IMG/VR virus record: IMGVR_UViG_3300045919_000631
Coordinates: 45,281-109,280 of that record
Source of the DNA: a virus
Direction: 5' to 3' (one strand)
Length of the DNA stretch: 64,000 bases
This document shows, in pieces, positions 12,666 to 63,644 of this stretch (its first letter is position 1; every line of letters begins with the position of its first letter). The position numbers were made by a program, and so were the translations under genes. The notes under the pieces were generated by a model that worked only from the letters and a program-made list of their open reading frames with translations, ran no database searches and had not been told where the DNA came from.

Positions 12666-14477
12666 TTATTCTACAATGATATTATCAAGAATAGTCTTGT
12701 TGAACAAGAACGGAAATTTAAAATACGGCAGTTGAATATCAGTAGATTTCACTTGAATGTCTGTTGAATAGTTAGGATTAAACACCAGTAAAGTCAACCC
12801 ACTTGAATTGATAACTAATCCATCGTCTAAAATTCTTCGCATACTATAATTTGCTACACCTGCAACGCTAAGGATTTGCGATACTAAATCACTCAAAGAT
12901 ACAAGCTGACCAAGCGTGCAATTATCTGGAGCAAAATAGTTTTGAAAGATTGTATTCACACTATTTTTAATACTGTTTGAATCTACTCTAGCATCAGATG
13001 TCTTTGTTATTACTATGAAAGTTGTCTTTGCAATATCAGGAGTTAATGTCTCGCCGGATCCGGCTAATCCTAGCGTAAATGCTGTGTATATAGGATCTTG
13101 AGGCACAAGCTCCATATTTAGAGCTTTCAACGGATTCATTGTTGATATTATCGCGTTTTTTTGTGAATTTTGTAAAAAATACTGAGTGTTACTACTATCA
13201 ACACTTTGGATGCGAGGTACAGCAAAAATATAAACGTTGTTGTCTTGTCCAGCATGTGCAAAATTTACTTCATTTGACAAAAATCTAGGATCTCCGTTTG
13301 GTGATGCTAAACCTAGGTCGTAAAAGTATTTAATATAATTCTCTATAAATGAGTTATTATTAACTGCCTTAACATCAATTACAATGTTTGAAAAATTCTT
13401 TGATATAAAAGTCTTAAAATCATCAGATGTCAGTAAACGATTTTGGCTAAAAAACGTCTTCGGAGAGTTTACTCTAATTTCATCAACTGTCTCTTTTTCT
13501 CTTGAAGATGAAGATGCGAGATTATTTGAAAAGCTTATATTAGTTGCAAGATTAACGGAGATATAATTTAGTGTTGATGAAAATACGTCTGCAGATATCT
13601 TATTGAACTGAGGAGACTGAAAGAAATTAATTGTTTGGCCGTTTAATTGATTGGCTGATATAACACCAGATGCACCATCGCTTTGGAGATAATAAACATA
13701 AACTTGGTCATTTGTATTTAATTTTTTGCCAAATACTCCGTTACCAAATTTAATTTCATAAAACTCGTTTTCGTTCAATCTAAGCTCATATTTTAAAGCA
13801 TCTCCAGATTCTAAAAATAAAGAACTTGTCGGCACATACTCATTATATTTACCAGTTGTTGCATCAAGCACATATACTCCAAACCCTCCATCAATAAATA
13901 GTGGATTATTGGTTACAGTGTCTTTAACGACGACAGTTACTGTTTCCCAATTTTCACCTGTTGCAAACTGCGCAGGATACTCAATCCATTTGCCTTGTTT
14001 TAATAAATTTTCTTCATATAGCGTTGCCAGGTCTTCAGTTCCTGATAATGTCTTGCTGAAAGTTATATCGGATGGGAAAGAAAAATATATACCATTAACA
14101 TCAAAAAACGAATATCTCGGGAGTGTGTATATACCAGTAGGAATATCTGATCCCGCTGTTGCCTCAAACGCTAAAAGCCCTGTTTGAAAACCTGTTGGCT
14201 TATAATTCATAAGCTTTACAAGTTTGTTCATATTCTCATATAAAGCTGCTTGGTCAAATTGAGCCTCTGCTCCTGTATTATTAAGATAGAACAAAAGATA
14301 GTGATAACTTAGTGCTATAACATCCATTATAGCGCTGATATTACTCCCTTCAAAATTTTGATCAGTAAAGACCCCACCTTGCGTTAGCCTGTCTCTAATT
14401 AAACTTTTGAGCGTAAGTGCATCAAAGGTTGCGTAACCGTTGCGTGGTAGTGTGAGATCTGTGAAAGTTGTTGCCAT
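12666..14477 (-). CDS. gp6: baseplate wedge protein, T4 gp6-like
   Basis: [48 protein letters not shown]; follows gp25. Confidence 0.9.
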
Positions 14478-14480
14478 TTG

Positions 14481-14960
14481 TTAATTTTTGAAGAAGCCTG
14501 TTTTATCTAAAGTACCTTTAAAGCTTACTTGCTCAGTACTAAAAGAAGGGACACTTATATTAAAAGTTATTGTATATGATTGATTTTCTGAGTCAGGAGA
14601 AACATCAATGTTAATTATATTTACACGTGGTTCAAATTTTTGAACATTTTCAAATATTGTCGTACCTATGATTCGAGCCCGTGCGTCACTTACTGGAGCA
14701 AATAAAATATCTCCAAAATTAGCACCAAAAATGGGATTTAAGGGTTTTTGTCCAGGCGATGTTGTTATTATATTAATAATGCTGTTAAATATTGCACCGA
14801 GGTTGTTATTTACAATTACATCTGTTACTTGCTGCTTCTTATAAAGTTGATTGTTAAATGTTAGCCCTAATGTTAAATCAAGCTGCAAATCTGTATAAGT
14901 CTTAGCATTGCCTCTGCTAGGATTTATATTGTTTAAGATATCGAGCTTTAGGTTAGCCAT
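14481..14960 (-). CDS. gp25: baseplate wedge/sheath initiator, gp25-like
   Basis: SIINIITTSPGQKPLNPIFGAN..LF..FEPRV GPW/gp25 motif. Confidence 0.9.
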   Translation of the reverse strand: MANLKLDILNNINPSRGNAKTYTDLQLDLTLGLTFNNQLYKKQQVTDVIVNNNLGAIFNSIINIITTSPGQKPLNPIFGANFGDILFAPVSDARARIIGTTIFENVQKFEPRVNIINIDVSPDSENQSYTITFNISVPSFSTEQVSFKGTLDKTGFFKN

Positions 14961-17532: not shown

Positions 17533-18382
17533 CAATTTCGTCTTTAAACGCATCAACTTTTACCTGCAGATGTTCCATATCAGTCAAGGTAAACTTAAAA
17601 AGAATTGCTTTGCGGTTAGGGTCTAAATCTTTTGGATTTATTTGTTTGAAGAAAGATATGAAATCGCTCAAGTCACCGAGAACACTCTTGAGTAAATTTA
17701 GTATCTGTAGCTGATTTACAATTGCTCGATTATAATATAGGATATCAGTTACTAAATTAGTGCCATGAGCTGTTTTAGCTGTGTTCACATTTACATCAAC
17801 TTGCAAGCCACTAAGACCACGCTTTAAAAGGGTGTCAGTATAGTAACTAAATGTTTTTAGCACCTTTAATTCATTTTGAGAAATTTTGTTATATAGTGAT
17901 GCTGATATTCCGACCGGTAAAAAATATTGTTTACTGTATGTATCGTAGTATGGAGATGTGTTATTATCAAGCACACATATAGTATTTGCTATATCCCCTG
18001 TATCATCAGAAAATTGTTTGAAATAGACGTTATTGTTGATAGCTGACTGAACACGAACCTGGAACTGTTCAGACATTGCAAAATATTTCTCAATGAAAAA
18101 TAATTTAAACGAATCATCAAGCTGTTTTTCACCGGCGGGATTTCCAAAAGCATCAAAATTAGGAACAGTGAAATTGGCATCGTTTAATGTTGCAAATAAG
18201 CCACCAACTGAACTCAACATATCATAGGAACTATTAGCTTTAGCAAACTCAATGCACTGATTAATTTCAGCAATATATGTTCCCATAGCTGAAAGTATGT
18301 TGGTGCTTGAGTTGTAAAAGGAAATGCTAGTTGCTTCTACAATATTAACGTAGTCAGGAAGAAGTGTTTGCTTATAGGACAT
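17495..18382 (-). CDS. hypothetical protein of the baseplate operon
   Basis: 295 aa, overlaps the upstream hub gene. Confidence 0.55.
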   Translation of the reverse strand: MSYKQTLLPDYVNIVEATSISFYNSSTNILSAMGTYIAEINQCIEFAKANSSYDMLSSVGGLFATLNDANFTVPNFDAFGNPAGEKQLDDSFKLFFIEKYFAMSEQFQVRVQSAINNNVYFKQFSDDTGDIANTICVLDNNTSPYYDTYSKQYFLPVGISASLYNKISQNELKVLKTFSYYTDTLLKRGLSGLQVDVNVNTAKTAHGTNLVTDILYYNRAIVNQLQILNLLKSVLGDLSDFISFFKQINPKDLDPNRKAILFKFTLTDMEHLQVKVDAFKDEIVKIEKSTMEILS

Positions 18383-31222: not shown

Positions 31223-31230
31223 TGCTTCTA

Positions 31231-31240
31231 TAAATATTTA
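31231..31240. promoter_or_regulatory. palindromic bidirectional late promoter TAAATATTTA
   Basis: Perfect palindrome in the 19-nt gap between divergent gp17 and the 31242 gene. Confidence 0.7.
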
Positions 31241-31241
31241 C

Positions 31242-32231
31242 ATGTCGCAATCAAAGAATCTATTAGAGATATGGGATGTCTATGCTAACAGAGTTATCTT
31301 AGCAGAAAAGGCACCAGCTAAAAAAACTGATACTTTTTCTTCCAAACCCGGAAAAGGACCAGCTGCTCTAAACAGTAAAGAAGCACAAGCAATGGCTCAT
31401 AAAGACACGTCTGGGCCAAATAGCGCTAAGCCGCTTCAAAAACCTCTCGATGTTAAAGATGTAAAGACTAATCCAAAAGATGCTGTCTACGGAGTTCAAC
31501 GTTTTACCGTAGCAAACGGAAAATTTGATGAAAGTATAGAAAAAAGATCTAAAGCGGTAATAAATAATTACATGAAATCTATTTTCGATAAATTGTTTGA
31601 AGATGTTATGGGTGGCGACGATTCTGCTGATCTTAAAGCCCTTGGCGTTGATACAAAAGACGGCCTTGATGCAGGTCAACCAGGAGAAGAAGGAATGGGT
31701 GACGAGTCTGGTGATGTAACAGTTACATTAACAGCTGATCAAGTAGATTGTTTGCGTGCAATTTTATCTCAACTTGACGGTGATGATGCTAGCGGGGATG
31801 ATTTAGAGCAGGGTCTCGGCGACGAAGGCAGCCCTGAAACTGATGAAATTGGTAATCCAGGTGAAGAAGATTCTGAAGAAGAGGACAAAGAAGATGAAGA
31901 TGTCACAAAAGAATCAGTTGCAGCTAGCGTAGACAATAATGTTGATGGCAGTGGTAAAGTTTTAGGCACAGCAATTACAGATGAAGATAAGCTCAATAAT
32001 GGCTTTGTTAAAAAAGGTAATGCAGTTGTAAAGAGCACAGTTTCTAAGCTCGGTAAAAAAGGAAGTCTTGGTAACGGTAATGTAGCAAATGCTGTAGATG
32101 GTAGCGGTAAAGTTTTAGGCACAGCAATTACAGACGAAGATAAACTTTCAAGCGGAATGACAAAAGTTGGTAAAGGTGCAAATGTTGTCAAGACAAAAAT
32201 TGGTAAGCCAGGCAGCGATTTTTTCAGCTAA
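31242..32231 (+). CDS. acidic/basic late protein, putative prohead core or internal head protein
   Basis: 329 aa; D/E-rich centre, K-rich ends, ILAE and LFE candidate cleavage sites, duplicated VDGSGKVLGTAITDEDKL; own late promoter and terminator. Confidence 0.6.
   Translation: MSQSKNLLEIWDVYANRVILAEKAPAKKTDTFSSKPGKGPAALNSKEAQAMAHKDTSGPNSAKPLQKPLDVKDVKTNPKDAVYGVQRFTVANGKFDESIEKRSKAVINNYMKSIFDKLFEDVMGGDDSADLKALGVDTKDGLDAGQPGEEGMGDESGDVTVTLTADQVDCLRAILSQLDGDDASGDDLEQGLGDEGSPETDEIGNPGEEDSEEEDKEDEDVTKESVAASVDNNVDGSGKVLGTAITDEDKLNNGFVKKGNAVVKSTVSKLGKKGSLGNGNVANAVDGSGKVLGTAITDEDKLSSGMTKVGKGANVVKTKIGKPGSDFFS
31561..31566 (+). promoter_or_regulatory. internal late promoter before in-frame ATG 31572
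   Basis: TAAATA-attac-ATG, same geometry as TAAATA-tttac-ATG at the gene start. Confidence 0.6.
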
Positions 32232-32254: not shown

Positions 32255-32280
32255 AAAGCCGGCTTAGAGCCGGCTTTTTT
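32255..32280 (+). terminator. Rho-independent terminator
   Basis: AAAGCCGGCT-tag-AGCCGGCTTTTTT. Confidence 0.88.
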
Positions 32281-32301
32281 ATGGTTCGATTAAATAATTG
32301 C

Positions 32302-32670
32302 GTGGATTCTTTTAAAAAATATTTTACCACTCAAATTGGGCCTAAGCACAGACACCGAAAAGACTTTACTACAGCCACTGGCAGTAAAGGCTATCAACGT
32401 CAGCAAGTAAATTTAGTTCCGCGATTGGCTCAAAATAATGCTTCAGATTTTTCTGGAGCACCTTCTTTTGTGGAAAAAAATCACAAAATTGAAACTCTAA
32501 AAAAGGCTCCTGGTAGATTTTTCTGTGATGGGAAAGATGTAGATTTCATTACAAAAACCTACTTAAAAGGTTCTGCAATTAAGCCTGGAGAAATAAAAAT
32601 GCTTGGTGGTAAGATGGGGATTAAGTTTTACCAAGATGCTAAAACCGGCAAATATATAATTGAAAAATGA
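32302..32670 (+). CDS. late hypothetical protein
   Basis: TAAATA at 32291 then GTG at 32302 (MDSFKKYF). Confidence 0.6.
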   Translation: MDSFKKYFTTQIGPKHRHRKDFTTATGSKGYQRQQVNLVPRLAQNNASDFSGAPSFVEKNHKIETLKKAPGRFFCDGKDVDFITKTYLKGSAIKPGEIKMLGGKMGIKFYQDAKTGKYIIEK

Positions 32671-32723
32671 CCTTCAACGAGCTATATACTATCCTTGAAA
32701 ACGACTTCATGAATGGCTTAGAT
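32667..32723 (+). repeat. 57-nt direct repeat, copy 1
   Basis: ATGACCTTCAACGAGCTATATACTATCCTTGAAAACGACTTCATGAATGGCTTAGAT; one mismatch to 33976-34032. Confidence 0.97.
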
Positions 32724-33110
32724 GACGTTGATAAAGAAGCGTTTTTCTATAAAATCAGAGTTAATCCAAACGACTTTGAAAAGTGTGGGGAAGGTTGGGT
32801 CGCTAAAAGTCTTAAAAATAAACCAAAAAGTTTAGAAAAAGATTGTATCATGTTTGTTGATGGCACTAAAGTGTGGTGGAAAAACGGAGAGCGCCATCGC
32901 GACGATAGACCTGCTATAGAATATGCTAGTGGCACTAAAGAGTGGTGGAAAAATGGGAGACTTCATCGCGATAATGGACCTGCTATAGAACGAGCTAGTG
33001 GCTCTAAAGAGTGGTATAAAAACGGAAAATGTCATCGCGACGATGGACCTGCTATAGAACGAGCTAGTGGCTATAAAGAGTGGTGGAAAAACGGAGTAAA
33101 AATTAAATGA
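32667..33110 (+). CDS. MORN-variant-like repeat protein (HRxDGPAIE..G.KEWWKNG) with shared N-terminal leader
   Basis: Three 23-aa repeats; first 19 codons shared with the 33976 gene. Confidence 0.8.
   Translation: MTFNELYTILENDFMNGLDDVDKEAFFYKIRVNPNDFEKCGEGWVAKSLKNKPKSLEKDCIMFVDGTKVWWKNGERHRDDRPAIEYASGTKEWWKNGRLHRDNGPAIERASGSKEWYKNGKCHRDDGPAIERASGYKEWWKNGVKIK
32874..33095 (+). repeat. 69-nt coding tandem repeat (3 units plus partial)
   Basis: Units start at 32874, 32943, 33012, 33081. Confidence 0.95.
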
Positions 33111-33976
33111 TCGACTATACCGGCAACTGTTTTCCAGGAATCGTTGACGATAGCACTTTTTGCTTTCGTTATAATGATAAAGCTACAAATGAAAATGAGC
33201 AATACCTTTTTCAAAGCTATTGGAATGAGCAAATTAATACATACGGTCAACGCACAACCTATTACGTCAATACCTACAATGTATTGAGCGCTGATAACAT
33301 TTATGGTGAGCAGCCGGCCCGACGCTTTGCTCCTGGTGTGAGCCTTATTATGGCAATTGAGTTGAGTGAAAATGCAAATACTCTTTCAAAATTTGGCTTT
33401 CAAGCTGATGATGAAATCACAGCATATGTGACAATATCAGGATTTTATAACGCTTTTAATTCTTTAGGATTGACATTGATGACAACAACCAGTGGAGTTT
33501 CAGGTAACGTCCTCGACACTCAAAATTCTCAAGATATTCGAACTGAAACATCAACAGTGTATGAAACTCAATTTAATCAGGTTCAGCCCAAAGCTGGTGA
33601 CGTTTTTGCAATGACAGAGTACGGCCAAGGACGTCCTGGTGGTCGAAGCGGTATTCAATTTGAAGTCACTGAAATTATTGATCAGGATATTACAAAAATA
33701 AATCAGCTCGGTGGCCATTACGTTTGGATGCTAAAAGCAAAACGCTTTGATTATAGCTTTGAGCCAGGGCTATCTGCTGAAGCTAAAAGCGATCAAGTAT
33801 TTGATAATTCATTTTCTGGTCAACTTAGCGGTGGTGTCGATGATGACGTTATTCCTACTCCAGTTGATACGTCAATCGATAAAAAATATCCTCTTAATAT
33901 CGACCAAACTAGCAAAACTGTTGTCTTTAATATGTCAGCTAATAATGATACAGCTGTCTATGGAGGTTATTACTAA
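33107..33976 (+). CDS. gp14: neck protein, gp14-like
   Basis: EQINTYGQ..DNIYGE..LSKFGFQADDEIT..PKAGDV..FEVTEI..QLGGHYVWML.AKRFDYSFE. Confidence 0.88.
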   Translation: MIDYTGNCFPGIVDDSTFCFRYNDKATNENEQYLFQSYWNEQINTYGQRTTYYVNTYNVLSADNIYGEQPARRFAPGVSLIMAIELSENANTLSKFGFQADDEITAYVTISGFYNAFNSLGLTLMTTTSGVSGNVLDTQNSQDIRTETSTVYETQFNQVQPKAGDVFAMTEYGQGRPGGRSGIQFEVTEIIDQDITKINQLGGHYVWMLKAKRFDYSFEPGLSAEAKSDQVFDNSFSGQLSGGVDDDVIPTPVDTSIDKKYPLNIDQTSKTVVFNMSANNDTAVYGGYY

Positions 33977-34032
33977 TGACCTTCAACGCGCTATATACTA
34001 TCCTTGAAAACGACTTCATGAATGGCTTAGAT
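33976..34032 (+). repeat. 57-nt direct repeat, copy 2
   Basis: 56/57 identity to 32667-32723 (GAG vs GCG in codon 5). Confidence 0.97.
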
Positions 34033-34332
34033 CAGGTCGAAGATGAATTAAAATGGCATCTCCCGTTTTATGTGTGGGATAGTAGTCCAAAAACAATTAA
34101 CACTAAACAATTTAGCAGTATTGCAGAGCACTGGATGTCTTACATAAAAGAAATCCATAAAAAATATAAAACTGCGAAAGAATTTCGAGATGCTATTCTC
34201 GAAGGAGAGCCTCTCATGTTTGAGAGGACTGGAGATGGTATAAAATATTTAGACGGTTCTGTATATTCTTATAAAGTGGTCTTCTGCTCTAATATAGATC
34301 GTCTCAAGGAATTTGTCAAGACCTTGAAGTAG
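33976..34332 (+). CDS. hypothetical protein with the shared N-terminal leader
   Basis: MTFNALYTILENDFMNGLD followed by sequence unrelated to the 32667 gene. Confidence 0.7.
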   Translation: MTFNALYTILENDFMNGLDQVEDELKWHLPFYVWDSSPKTINTKQFSSIAEHWMSYIKEIHKKYKTAKEFRDAILEGEPLMFERTGDGIKYLDGSVYSYKVVFCSNIDRLKEFVKTLK

Positions 34333-34555
34333 CTTTTTGAATCATCCAATTTTCGATATCGTATCGCATATCTTTTTCGCGATCAATGATGTATTTTTGA
34401 AACGCGAGTGGTTTAATCCAAGAACTATTCTTATCAGGGTTTAAACCGAGTTGCTCAGCTTTTTGACAAGCTAAATTTACTCCCTCAATTAAACAGGCCA
34501 TTCGAGCCAAAAAATCTATTCCATACTCTTCTTCTAAGTTACTTGTTACTGTCAT
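34316..34555 (-). CDS. hypothetical protein
   Basis: 79 aa in a chain of overlapping minus-strand ORFs. Confidence 0.6.
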   Translation of the reverse strand: MTVTSNLEEEYGIDFLARMACLIEGVNLACQKAEQLGLNPDKNSSWIKPLAFQKYIIDREKDMRYDIENWMIQKATSRS

Positions 34556-40748: not shown

Positions 40749-41372
40749 GAGCTCGAAAATCGTTATGCACAATTTTCGAGCTTTATTGGAAGCGTAGTAT
40801 TTAGTTCTGTAAAAATTAATGTTATCGAATAAAGTTCCAAACATTAGGTTCTTTATATCTTTGTCATATGTTGCTAGGGTTGTATCGAATTTAGGAAATG
40901 TAAAAAGTGGATATAAAATAGTGTTTCGTTCTTTAAGATGTATTAAAAATGAATGAAGACTTTCGTTTTCTTCCTTCACCAATATATAGTCTTCAAACTT
41001 AGTTTTTCTTTGTTGGCAAAACTTAAAAATGTAGAGAAAGCTGTCTTTTATTTTTTTAACTGTTTGATTATGATCAGGATTGTTGGGTAAGAAATTTGTC
41101 TCATAATTTGTATAAGCTTTTATTGCTTTTTGAGTTGTAAAAAACTTTAAATCAAAATGCTTCTCATTGTATACAAAATATGGAGCTTCTAAGAAATCTT
41201 TAATGTTAATATTTGGGAACCTATTAAAGAAATTAGTAAGCCTTGCAACGTAAACATAATCCTCTCTTTCTTCGAACCCTTCAAAATCTTTTCTATACTT
41301 AAAAGGCTGATTATTGATCTTTCTCGATATTTCGAGATAACAGTTGTAGACGTACTGCTCCTGAGTTGTCAT
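40722..41372 (-). CDS. putative helicase loader, gp59-like
   Basis: 216 aa directly upstream of gp32 as in T4; VYNCYL..FEEREDYVYVARL resembles the gp59 N-terminal pattern. Confidence 0.55.
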   Translation of the reverse strand: MTTQEQYVYNCYLEISRKINNQPFKYRKDFEGFEEREDYVYVARLTNFFNRFPNINIKDFLEAPYFVYNEKHFDLKFFTTQKAIKAYTNYETNFLPNNPDHNQTVKKIKDSFLYIFKFCQQRKTKFEDYILVKEENESLHSFLIHLKERNTILYPLFTFPKFDTTLATYDKDIKNLMFGTLFDNINFYRTKYYASNKARKLCITIFELLKNKQPNI

Positions 41373-41599
41373 TGATGAATTAGTAGAGGCATATAAGGTG
41401 CGTAAACAATACCTGGGGTTATTGGATTATTTCGACGGTATTCATAAGCTTTTCTCTCGTTTTCAATAACGTCTAATCCTGCTATAAAATTATCGTCTTG
41501 TTCAGTCATGCTTTTAGGCCCACTACAGGTCTGCCTTATCAAACTGTTAATGATTTCTTTATCAAGCTCTTTTACCCTCACCATAAACGAATCTTCCAT
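41369..41599 (-). CDS. small protein ending in a major-capsid-like motif
   Basis: C-terminal PGIVYAPYMPL resembles gp23 AGIYYAPYV. Confidence 0.55.
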   Translation of the reverse strand: MEDSFMVRVKELDKEIINSLIRQTCSGPKSMTEQDDNFIAGLDVIENERKAYEYRRNNPITPGIVYAPYMPLLIHQ

Positions 41600-47827: not shown

Positions 47828-48933
47828 ACTGCATCATCTTCAACCTCATCTGGAACTTCAGCTGCACCTCCTGTAGATGCCATTCCATATTTCCACTCTG
47901 TCTTAATGCGTTCCTCAATTCCTGGTACAATAAAATTGTCCCAAAGCTCAATATCATTTTTCCAGCGACCATATTGACCAATTTTATCTCCATTTGGCTT
48001 TGTGTATGTGCTTCCGCTTTGGTTGATGACACCAAGCCCAACTGCTAAATCAAGTAAACCATAGTATTTAGCAAGACCACTTTCAAAGCTTAGATACATC
48101 TCTCCTTCAAGATATTGTTTTGCAAAACGGTTCTTTGCTGTTAATGCTCTAAGAATTACTCCAGGATAGCTTTTTTGCCCCACAGCTAATTTTGATTCAA
48201 TATGCTTATCTTCTTTCATTGGCTTGCGAGCCAATTGAACTGTTACTGACGGAAGATAGACTGCAGCACGACCGCCTGGCATTTCTTTTACAAGAGAAGG
48301 AAACATTGCAGATGGATCATCAAAGATATGATTTGTTGCAAGAATCGTTGTCTTGGTTACAGCAGCTAATTGCGTTGCTGTTCTCAGTAATGATTTAACT
48401 GCCTTTGCTCTACTTCCCATATCAGCAGAAACATTACTCTTTTCCATTCTGTTGATTTGAATCTCGCTTTCCATATTACCAAGCGAATCAATTGCTACTA
48501 CAAACTTATCAGTAATACCTTTTTCTTGAGCTTTCTTCAAGAAAGACCAAAGAGTGTTTCTACATTCTTCAAGGCTAAATGATGGAACATATTTAACCAG
48601 ACTTGAATCTAAACCTAGAGCCTCTGCTCCTTGAGCATCAATTGCGTTTTCACTATCAAAAACGACAATCGTTTTACCTGCTTTCTGTGCATTAGCAAGA
48701 ATTTTTTGAATGATATATGACTTACCGGTCATAGATGGGCCTGCAAATAAAGTTAATCTATTTTTTGGAATCCCGCCAAAAAGAGAACCGGAAATAATGC
48801 CGTTAAGCACCATTGATCCGGTGTCCCACCAACCCTCTACATTTGAAAGTGCTCCATTTTTCAGAAATGAAGCATATGGATTTAACTTATCAATTTCACC
48901 TAAAATTTCATCGAGATCAGCGTCTTTGGCCAT
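47824..48933 (-). CDS. uvsX: RecA-like recombinase UvsX
   Basis: DTGS..LNGIISGS..GGIP, AGPSMTGKS, FDSENA, IDSLGN, ADMG.RAK, TNH, KNRF. Confidence 0.95.
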   Translation of the reverse strand: MAKDADLDEILGEIDKLNPYASFLKNGALSNVEGWWDTGSMVLNGIISGSLFGGIPKNRLTLFAGPSMTGKSYIIQKILANAQKAGKTIVVFDSENAIDAQGAEALGLDSSLVKYVPSFSLEECRNTLWSFLKKAQEKGITDKFVVAIDSLGNMESEIQINRMEKSNVSADMGSRAKAVKSLLRTATQLAAVTKTTILATNHIFDDPSAMFPSLVKEMPGGRAAVYLPSVTVQLARKPMKEDKHIESKLAVGQKSYPGVILRALTAKNRFAKQYLEGEMYLSFESGLAKYYGLLDLAVGLGVINQSGSTYTKPNGDKIGQYGRWKNDIELWDNFIVPGIEERIKTEWKYGMASTGGAAEVPDEVEDDAV

Positions 48934-63021: not shown

Positions 63022-63387
63022 ATGAGTCTCTTTAATGAATTTGTGAATGCTATCTTACTTGAAGATGGTCCTACAACAGATTTTAAAGAGTTGCCTGAAT
63101 CACCTCCTTATGGATTCATTGTTGATCCATCAGGTAAATTTACTGCAATAAGAAACTTTCAAGGTCATGCAGCTGCGGTGTATGTGCATTATACTAAATA
63201 CTTTATAGATTCTCCTGAGGGTGGTGTACCTGCTTGGACTACTATGGAGCGAAATGGTTTTATTAGGCTTGTGTGTGATAATGATGTTTTATTAGCTAAT
63301 ACAATAAAACCAACAAATGCTGCACGAAGAACAGCTCAAGATATAGCAAGATGGTATAATTTAAATTACGTCGAAGAGGGAGAATAA
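63022..63387 (+). CDS. late protein with capsid-targeting-like N-terminus
   Basis: Start at 63022 (MSLFNEFVNAILLE); PPYGFIVDPSG..H motif. Confidence 0.65.
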   Translation: MSLFNEFVNAILLEDGPTTDFKELPESPPYGFIVDPSGKFTAIRNFQGHAAAVYVHYTKYFIDSPEGGVPAWTTMERNGFIRLVCDNDVLLANTIKPTNAARRTAQDIARWYNLNYVEEGE

Positions 63388-63395
63388 ATAAATTT

Positions 63396-63644
63396 ATGTC
63401 TGCTTTTGATACCTCAGTTAATAACATTTTAAAGCAATATGTCTTTGAAAATCTCCCAGCACCAGATAATACAGTAAGCCAAATATCTTTAGCTGATTTC
63501 GATGAAAAATATAAAACAGAGATGGAATTGTTAGCTAAGAAATTACAGGATGAAAATCAAATGAAAGAGGATGATGCAAAAGCGTTGGCTAGACACACTA
63601 TTCTTAGTGATTTGGCTAACCAAGGCGTTACCATTAAAGTTTGA
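63396..63644 (+). CDS. late protein with capsid-targeting-like N-terminus
   Basis: TAAATA at 63385; MSAFDTSVNNILKQYVFE. Confidence 0.6.
   Translation: MSAFDTSVNNILKQYVFENLPAPDNTVSQISLADFDEKYKTEMELLAKKLQDENQMKEDDAKALARHTILSDLANQGVTIKV

Follow-up and report, generated by a model that had tools for sequence, protein, structure and literature searches.

A near-identical run of 57 nucleotides heads the two genes flanking a gp14-like neck gene in the viral DNA analyzed here, and it appears to be the common 5' end of one subfamily within a phage-specific gene family. On the reading that we favor, to which we assign a probability of roughly one half, the repeat encodes a propeptide resembling the capsid-targeting sequence (CTS) of phage T4, joined to the helix motif of the family and spread among paralogues by recent recombination. 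The window, meaning the whole stretch analyzed, comprises 64,000 nucleotides, bases 45281-109280 of a 109,280-bp IMG/VR record (G000) that is 52% complete; coordinates are those of the window unless another record or contig is named.

Pairwise comparison of positions 32667-32723 and 33976-34032, both on the plus strand, gave 56 identities in 57 nucleotides, and none of 100 shuffles of the window yielded two matches to the 57-mer. Each copy opens at the ATG of an open reading frame (ORF), the first encoding 147 amino acids (32667-33110) and the second 118 (33976-34332). The sole mismatch, GAG to GCG, is non-synonymous (E5A in the second copy), and there are no synonymous changes. Both starts are coupled to the gene before them: the stop codon of p129 and the ATG of the 147-amino acid gene overlap as ATGA, and the gp14 TAA and the ATG of the 118-amino acid gene as TAATG. 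The stop codon of the 147-amino acid gene and the ATG of gp14 also overlap as ATGA. Likeness at the DNA level stops past codon 19, the following 60 nucleotides matching at 18 positions, and the 45 nucleotides upstream match at 18 as well. A preliminary description of this DNA had reported a near-identical pair of 57-mers at start codons, coupled to the upstream genes and free of synonymous change, and had proposed recent copying of the leader; all of this holds, the copying being evident from the DNA identity. The downstream protein, given there as 99 amino acids, has 118, of which 99 follow the leader.

The pair turned out to be part of a larger set, contrary to the two-copy cassette first described. 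A third copy, with three mismatches, lies outside the window at G000:1397-1453 on the minus strand and heads a 198-amino acid protein that is a full-length paralogue of the 147-amino acid protein. Two more are found on a 48,364-bp contig (G001), where adjacent genes for a 170-amino acid repeat protein and a 99-amino acid protein both carry the leader, giving five copies in total, three in G000 and two on G001. The 170-amino acid protein is a homologue, 92% identical across the first 62 residues, and both leader genes on G001 are preceded by the same gene end, ...WYKNGVKIK and a stop codon. The leader of the 99-amino acid gene differs from that of its neighbor at six of 57 nucleotides, four of the changes being synonymous. 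As had been claimed, then, the same leader stands before different cargo, on at least three different protein bodies.

Positions 48212-48364 of G001 overlap positions 1-153 of G000 (153 nucleotides, 99.3% identity), and the end genes of the two contigs are collinear with 169.1-170.2 kb of a complete relative, G003. Because of this overlap and collinearity we treat the two as neighbors from the same type of phage, and a single genome of at least 157 kb probably contains both, side by side. A search of IMG/VR with the last 40 nucleotides, aimed at extending the contig, gave no match, nor did megablast of the 5 kb around the repeat pair against 50,697 phage records.

The leader falls into two parts. 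Codons 1-11 (MTFNELYTILE in the first copy) are CTS-like, and codons 12-19 (NDFMNGLD) encode the beginning of helix 1 in a protein family whose hallmark is [E]NDF[MIL]xG[VL]Dx[VLI][ED]. With a loose pattern we counted 33 motif units in 25 ORFs, seven in G000 and 18 in G001, where the motif genes stand as a co-oriented array; counting two more ORFs whose motifs are variant, the family numbers at least 27. A scan of the G001 array for sigma-70 promoters and terminators showed no enrichment. Thirteen family ORFs of 62-103 amino acids begin directly at the motif (MNDFMKGLD..., MDNFIKGLD...), ten have it preceded by a short N-terminal extension, and four proteins of 207-390 amino acids hold two to four units each. 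A degenerate member, DDNFIAGLDVIENE, was recognized at 41369-41599 on the minus strand (E = 2e-4). The notion of a free-standing tag is therefore not supported, since residues 12-19 are the conserved helix motif of this family.

The family appears to be confined to this phage, the only place in which it was found. Searched exhaustively with a family profile, 1.84 billion protein representatives, which stand for about 15 billion proteins, yielded only 17 matches, whose lengths fit ORFs of G000 and G001, and a word-indexed search of 5.8 billion protein clusters, made with the 118-amino acid protein and with the family alignment, gave self matches only. No member was found in G004, the closest relative, or in G002 and G003, two relatives with complete genomes. 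Pfam, PHROGs and NCBIfam gave nothing above cut-off for the leader proteins, the family members or any of the neighbors other than gp14.

The 118-amino acid protein, located between gp14 and the convergent gene p79, consists of the leader and a type-A family domain. It aligns over its full length with the small type-A members, sharing the motif, a W, LLxGE and C..KLE, and a leave-one-out HMM recovers it at E = 3.4e-14. With the profile restricted to the body (columns after residue 26), it still scored E = 1.2e-6 among 4,532 ORF segments from five genomes, a set in which the body-only profile had no match outside this phage. Judged by these profiles, the protein is a family member even without its leader. 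The abrupt end of DNA likeness noted at the outset is thus correct, but complete divergence is not, because the leader motif is itself a feature of the family in which this body falls; nor are the two genes unrelated, the supposed cargo being a full member of the family to which the second half of the leader belongs.

An AlphaFold2 (AF2) model of the 118-amino acid protein, built from a 15-sequence family alignment, reached a pLDDT of 90.1 and a pTM of 0.75. It comprises a helix over residues 3-26 that includes the leader, two beta-hairpins, the LLxGE motif, and short helices including a C-terminal one. The best Foldseek match to the PDB had E = 0.17, the best in BFVD had E = 0.02 (TM 0.45-0.50), and VIA-align against 48,161 chains reached Z = 3.9 at best; an ESM Atlas feature search with the protein gave no usable match. 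The modeled fold is accordingly without a named match, which does not by itself prove a new fold.

The body of the 147-amino acid protein, encoded between p129 and gp14, is different, and only the leader and motif are held in common with the family. Behind the leader come a 40-amino acid N-domain and 23-residue beta-hairpin repeats (WxKNG..HRDDGPAxE). Its AF2 model was of low confidence (pLDDT 59.6) and was kept out of the fold search. The repeat part of the 147- and 198-amino acid proteins matches clusters of DUF6745/MORN_2 (YwqK-like) proteins, with TM scores of 0.94-0.95 between predicted structures and 0.94 for language-model features. The 198-amino acid paralogue scored 26.5 bits against Pfam DUF6745/MORN_2, for which the cut-off is 27; the 147-amino acid protein had no Pfam match, and a PDB sequence search with the 198-amino acid paralogue found nothing significant (E = 0.18). 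DUF6745/MORN_2 repeat proteins are common in phages, and the repeat part here is like them in predicted structure, whereas the N-terminal 60 residues of the 147- and 198-amino acid proteins are specific to this phage. A 346-amino acid ORF on G001 (locus L066, 5632-6672, minus strand) contains two family units, a third unit and a single repeat; the third unit is 84-90% identical in protein sequence to the leader-motif and N-domain of the repeat proteins, and the ORF looks like a preserved product of recombination between subfamilies.

The gene between the two leader copies (33107-33976, plus strand) matches PHROG 679 'head closure Hc2' at E = 1.7e-14 and scores 18.7 bits against Pfam PF11649 (T4_neck-protein), below the cut-off of 25. 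Its identification as a gp14-like neck (head-closure) gene rests on the profile match together with its conserved position, the same neighbors being found in 124 homologous loci. Upstream lies p129 (32281-32670, plus strand), a conserved gene that, wherever relatives carry it, lies directly beside gp14; in 26 IMG/VR and 24 metagenome loci the gap between them is -7 to +28 nucleotides, with no intervening gene. Downstream, p79 (34316-34555, minus strand) is a conserved convergent neighbor of gp14 in relatives, at a junction ranging from about -27 nucleotides (an overlap) to 3.4 kb. Comparison of gp14 neighborhoods among relatives, a check that the preliminary description had suggested, found no homologue of the 147- or the 118-amino acid gene in any of the 124 loci, and both leader genes are therefore taken as lineage-specific insertions. 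The closest gp14 in JGI metagenomes is at most 61% identical. The C-terminus of gp14, VYGGYY before the stop codon, is native, and the last seven nucleotides of the gene (ATTACTA) also stand before the 198-amino acid copy, possibly as microhomology at the insertion site. The convergent gp14/p79 junction is plastic in relatives (loci L013, L014 and L054; also L005, L011, L015 and L020-L030), where it holds, depending on the relative, a 454-463-amino acid membrane-like ORF, a 3.4-kb block or a small reverse ORF beginning MK[YFH]IPG.

The transcription unit is headed by p329 (31242-32231, plus strand), an acidic late protein with homologues in 54 of 60 IMG/VR relatives, and a hairpin with a 10-bp GC-rich stem and a T-run (32255-32277, plus strand) separates p329 from p129. 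A TATAAATA box at 31229-31236 stands 5 nucleotides ahead of the p329 ATG, and p329, as first gene of the gp14 unit, is one of 23 ORFs in G000, structural genes included, that have NATAAATA 0-9 nucleotides (mostly 5) before the ATG. Neither leader copy in the window has a late box of its own; both lie in the p329-p129-gp14 unit behind the TATAAATA box, an arrangement that places the leader genes inside a predicted late transcription unit and suggests that they are expressed late. The third copy, that of the 198-amino acid gene, is preceded by a hairpin and then TGTAAATA-N6-ATG. If transcripts begin here where T4 late transcripts do, these mRNAs would have little or no 5' untranslated region; in G002, 14 of 35 TATAAATA sites sit 0-9 nucleotides before an ATG. 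Within p329 (about 31559-32231), AATAAATA-N5-ATG would give rise to a predicted 219-amino acid, very acidic C-terminal product starting MKSIFDKLFEDV, and late-box starts are paired likewise in G002, at 140323 and 140668. Outside the window, immediately downstream of two type-A family genes (14102-14652), G000 encodes an HNH endonuclease (13400-14059, minus strand; locus L071) whose gene has a TATAAATA-N8 start.

The first 11 residues of the leader invite comparison with T4-type packaged proteins, in which the N-terminal propeptide measures about 10-19 residues, and with T4 itself, in which the CTS is MKTYQEFIAE, with residues 4 and 7 mainly responsible for targeting and residues 8 and 10 for processing; the protease gp21 cuts after L/I-x-E, and T4 core proteins are cut several times. 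By sequence resemblance, F3 and L6 of MTFNELYTILE, an aromatic and a hydrophobic residue, can be likened to Y4 and F7 of T4. At the terminal site the two copies in the window have I-L-E, the 198-amino acid protein has L-L-E and the 99-amino acid protein of G001 has V-L-E. Beside MTFNELYT[ILV]LE, carried by five genes, the family N-termini include MKSFQHFVTE and MKPFKLYFE, both of which fit the T4 positions better than MTFNELYTILE, as well as MNFQTYFE and, in two genes, MDK[TA]SKDI..LYE. Each of these extensions has its final E directly before NDF or NTF, the point at which the short members begin. The two class-2 leaders share 44 of 63 nucleotides (70%) and are conserved in peptide, so that the extensions appear to have been kept as peptides despite DNA divergence. 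Thus the earlier idea of a T4-type capsid-targeting leader fits residues 1-11, which look like a CTS propeptide and plausibly act as one, but not the second half, which is the family motif.

In G002, a relative whose complete genome measures 229 kb, there are a gp21-type Peptidase_S77 gene and two genes that start MKSFKEFILE (61 amino acids, very basic) and MRSYKEFFYE, each with a T4 late-promoter box 5-8 nucleotides before the ATG, and the PF03420 protease is present in both G002 and G003. Because the head module is absent from G000 and G001, the required protease is inferred from these relatives only, at 44% gp14 identity. In loci from 124 relatives, none of 6,462 candidate ORF starts matched a CTS-like N-terminal pattern, which was defined after the sequences had been seen.

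Among late-box ORFs, an [LI]xE site whose E falls at residues 8-15 is overrepresented in G002 (11 of 30 versus 26 of 239; p = 6e-4), the corresponding counts in G000 being six of 17 versus 21 of 123 (p = 0.1), and later residue windows show no enrichment. This could reflect widespread N-terminal propeptides or a bias in composition. Three small late-box ORFs, at 63022-63387 and 63396-63644 in the window and at G000 17866-18114 (minus strand), have N-termini (MSLFNEFVNAILLE, MSAFDTSVNNILK and MTFNEAVNNILS, respectively) that are mutually related and partly leader-like; none belongs to a known family.

Together these observations outline how a shared propeptide might work and spread. The extension MTFNELYTILE would dock the protein onto the prohead core as the T4 CTS does, and a gp21-type protease would then cut after I-L-E, exposing NDFM... 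as in the short members; the leader-bearing proteins would presumably be injected. Recombination or gene conversion between paralogues would account for the 56/57 identity, with the conserved motif supplying the DNA homology, which would explain why the 3' exchange junction falls at the end of the motif. Our confidence is high in one part of this reading, namely that the near-identity arose when paralogues recently exchanged sequence, the junction lying where the conserved motif ends.

Several points speak against the CTS part. Thirteen members lack any extension, so that this route would leave most of the family untargeted; some extensions have V or Y instead of L/I at P3; and the cargo proteins, with pI values of 5.9, 8.7 and 7.7, are acidic to mildly basic, unlike the highly basic internal proteins of T4. 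Neither a gp21-type (PF03420) prohead protease nor a major capsid gene was found in G000 or G001, and G003 and G004 (39% complete) are devoid of CTS-like N-termini. Moreover, the extension is modeled as a seamless part of helix 1, which it may merely lengthen. If so, the leader would be a longer first helix of the family fold, perhaps docking inside the cell onto some partner, from host or phage, that these proteins have in common, with neither capsid targeting nor cleavage, and the identity would be a trace of gene conversion. We take this alternative seriously while leaning against it. It is favored by the single continuous helix over residues 3-26 in the AF2 model, by the occurrence of residues 12-19 as the family motif in 33 units, internal ones included, by the 13 members lacking an extension, by the mostly acidic character of the family and by the absence of a protease from the available contigs. 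It leaves unexplained why at least five distinct extensions all resemble the CTS pattern of T4 and G002, with an E right before the start of the short members, and why they are kept as peptides while their DNA diverges.

A broader and unlikely version of the favored reading extends packaging to the whole family. More than 25 small related proteins would be packaged and injected, tagged ones being trimmed after [LIV]xE and the 207-390-amino acid proteins cut internally as polyproteins; each mature unit would begin NDFM..., and the motif DNA would serve as a recombination joint that shuffles tags and bodies. [LI]xE precedes nearly every internal motif in the multi-unit proteins, and the cuts would fall there.

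Closest to the preliminary description, and improbable to our minds, is a private 57-nucleotide address cassette copied to two unrelated genes as a tag for arbitrary cargo. The 56/57 identity, the abrupt loss of DNA similarity after it and the different folds of the bodies would all suit such a cassette, but there are five copies instead of two, half of the tag is the family motif, and the 118-amino acid body is placed in the family even without the leader (E = 1.2e-6). Given the copy number, the shared motif and the membership of this body, the tag moves within the family, by way of the family's own homology.

It is more improbable still that the element acts as DNA or RNA, whether as a translation-initiation, operator or recombination site or as the target of a homing enzyme, with the peptide incidental. 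Among the repeat-protein paralogues the leader is slightly more conserved in DNA than what follows (54-55 of 57 versus 52-56 of the next 60 nucleotides), and an HNH endonuclease gene adjoins two family genes. Third positions are free, however: the invariant F of the motif is encoded by TTC 21 times and TTT 12 times, and the invariant G by GGC, GGT, GGA and GGG, variation from which we conclude that selection acts on the peptide. The class-2 leaders, 70% identical in DNA with a conserved peptide, and the lack of upstream similarity speak against it as well. Assembly artefact, in the form of a mis-join or a collapsed repeat at the 57-mer, can be given almost no credence: the contig comes from a metagenome, typical large k-mers are longer than the repeats, and breaks near family genes do occur in this phage's contigs, but the copies differ at one base, the independent G001 has the leader on two adjacent genes, and the sole alternative path would drop gp14, which stands between p129 and p79 in all relatives.

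Loading into T4 heads by a CTS is established for a few T-even internal proteins and has been used to package foreign proteins; reviews of T4 propose that T4-like phages use the CTS to take up varied cargo. The phage described here may be a case of the principle at work in a distant freshwater T4-type lineage, on a large and rapidly recombining family, and, if so, would offer a natural example of packaged-cargo diversification together with new tag variants. Whatever the fate of the CTS reading, a family of at least 27 members in one phage among 15 billion proteins, with an unmatched fold, is unusual for a phage.

Several known systems bear comparison. PeSL cassettes of T4-type phages are intergenic repeats composed of an early promoter and a stem-loop; a PeSL-type mobile cassette was considered and rejected here, as the present repeat is coding sequence from the ATG on, and the 45 nucleotides upstream match at 18 positions. 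In T4 itself, Alt, ModA and ModB are paralogous ADP-ribosyltransferases of which only Alt has a propeptide and is packaged. Similarly, within one family here some paralogues would be packaged and injected and others made after infection, although this family is far larger and has no detectable relatives. Two reports (PMC5694885, PMC7411985) describe, for giant phages such as SPN3US, paralogous ejection or inner-body proteins processed by the prohead protease, so that several head-internal proteins bear propeptides that it removes; those phages belong to another lineage, and we found no homology to them. The nearest parallel is the CTS of T4 IPI, IPII and IPIII. Whereas the T4 tag heads unrelated basic proteins, the tag described here is fused to a helix motif that one large family shares; it also has several variants of 8-13 residues and is missing from most family members. 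The likeness, one of sequence resemblance, lies in the aromatic and hydrophobic residues at the targeting positions, the I/L-x-E end and the predicted late-gene context: in both cases, a short N-terminal peptide heads otherwise different proteins of a T4-type phage.
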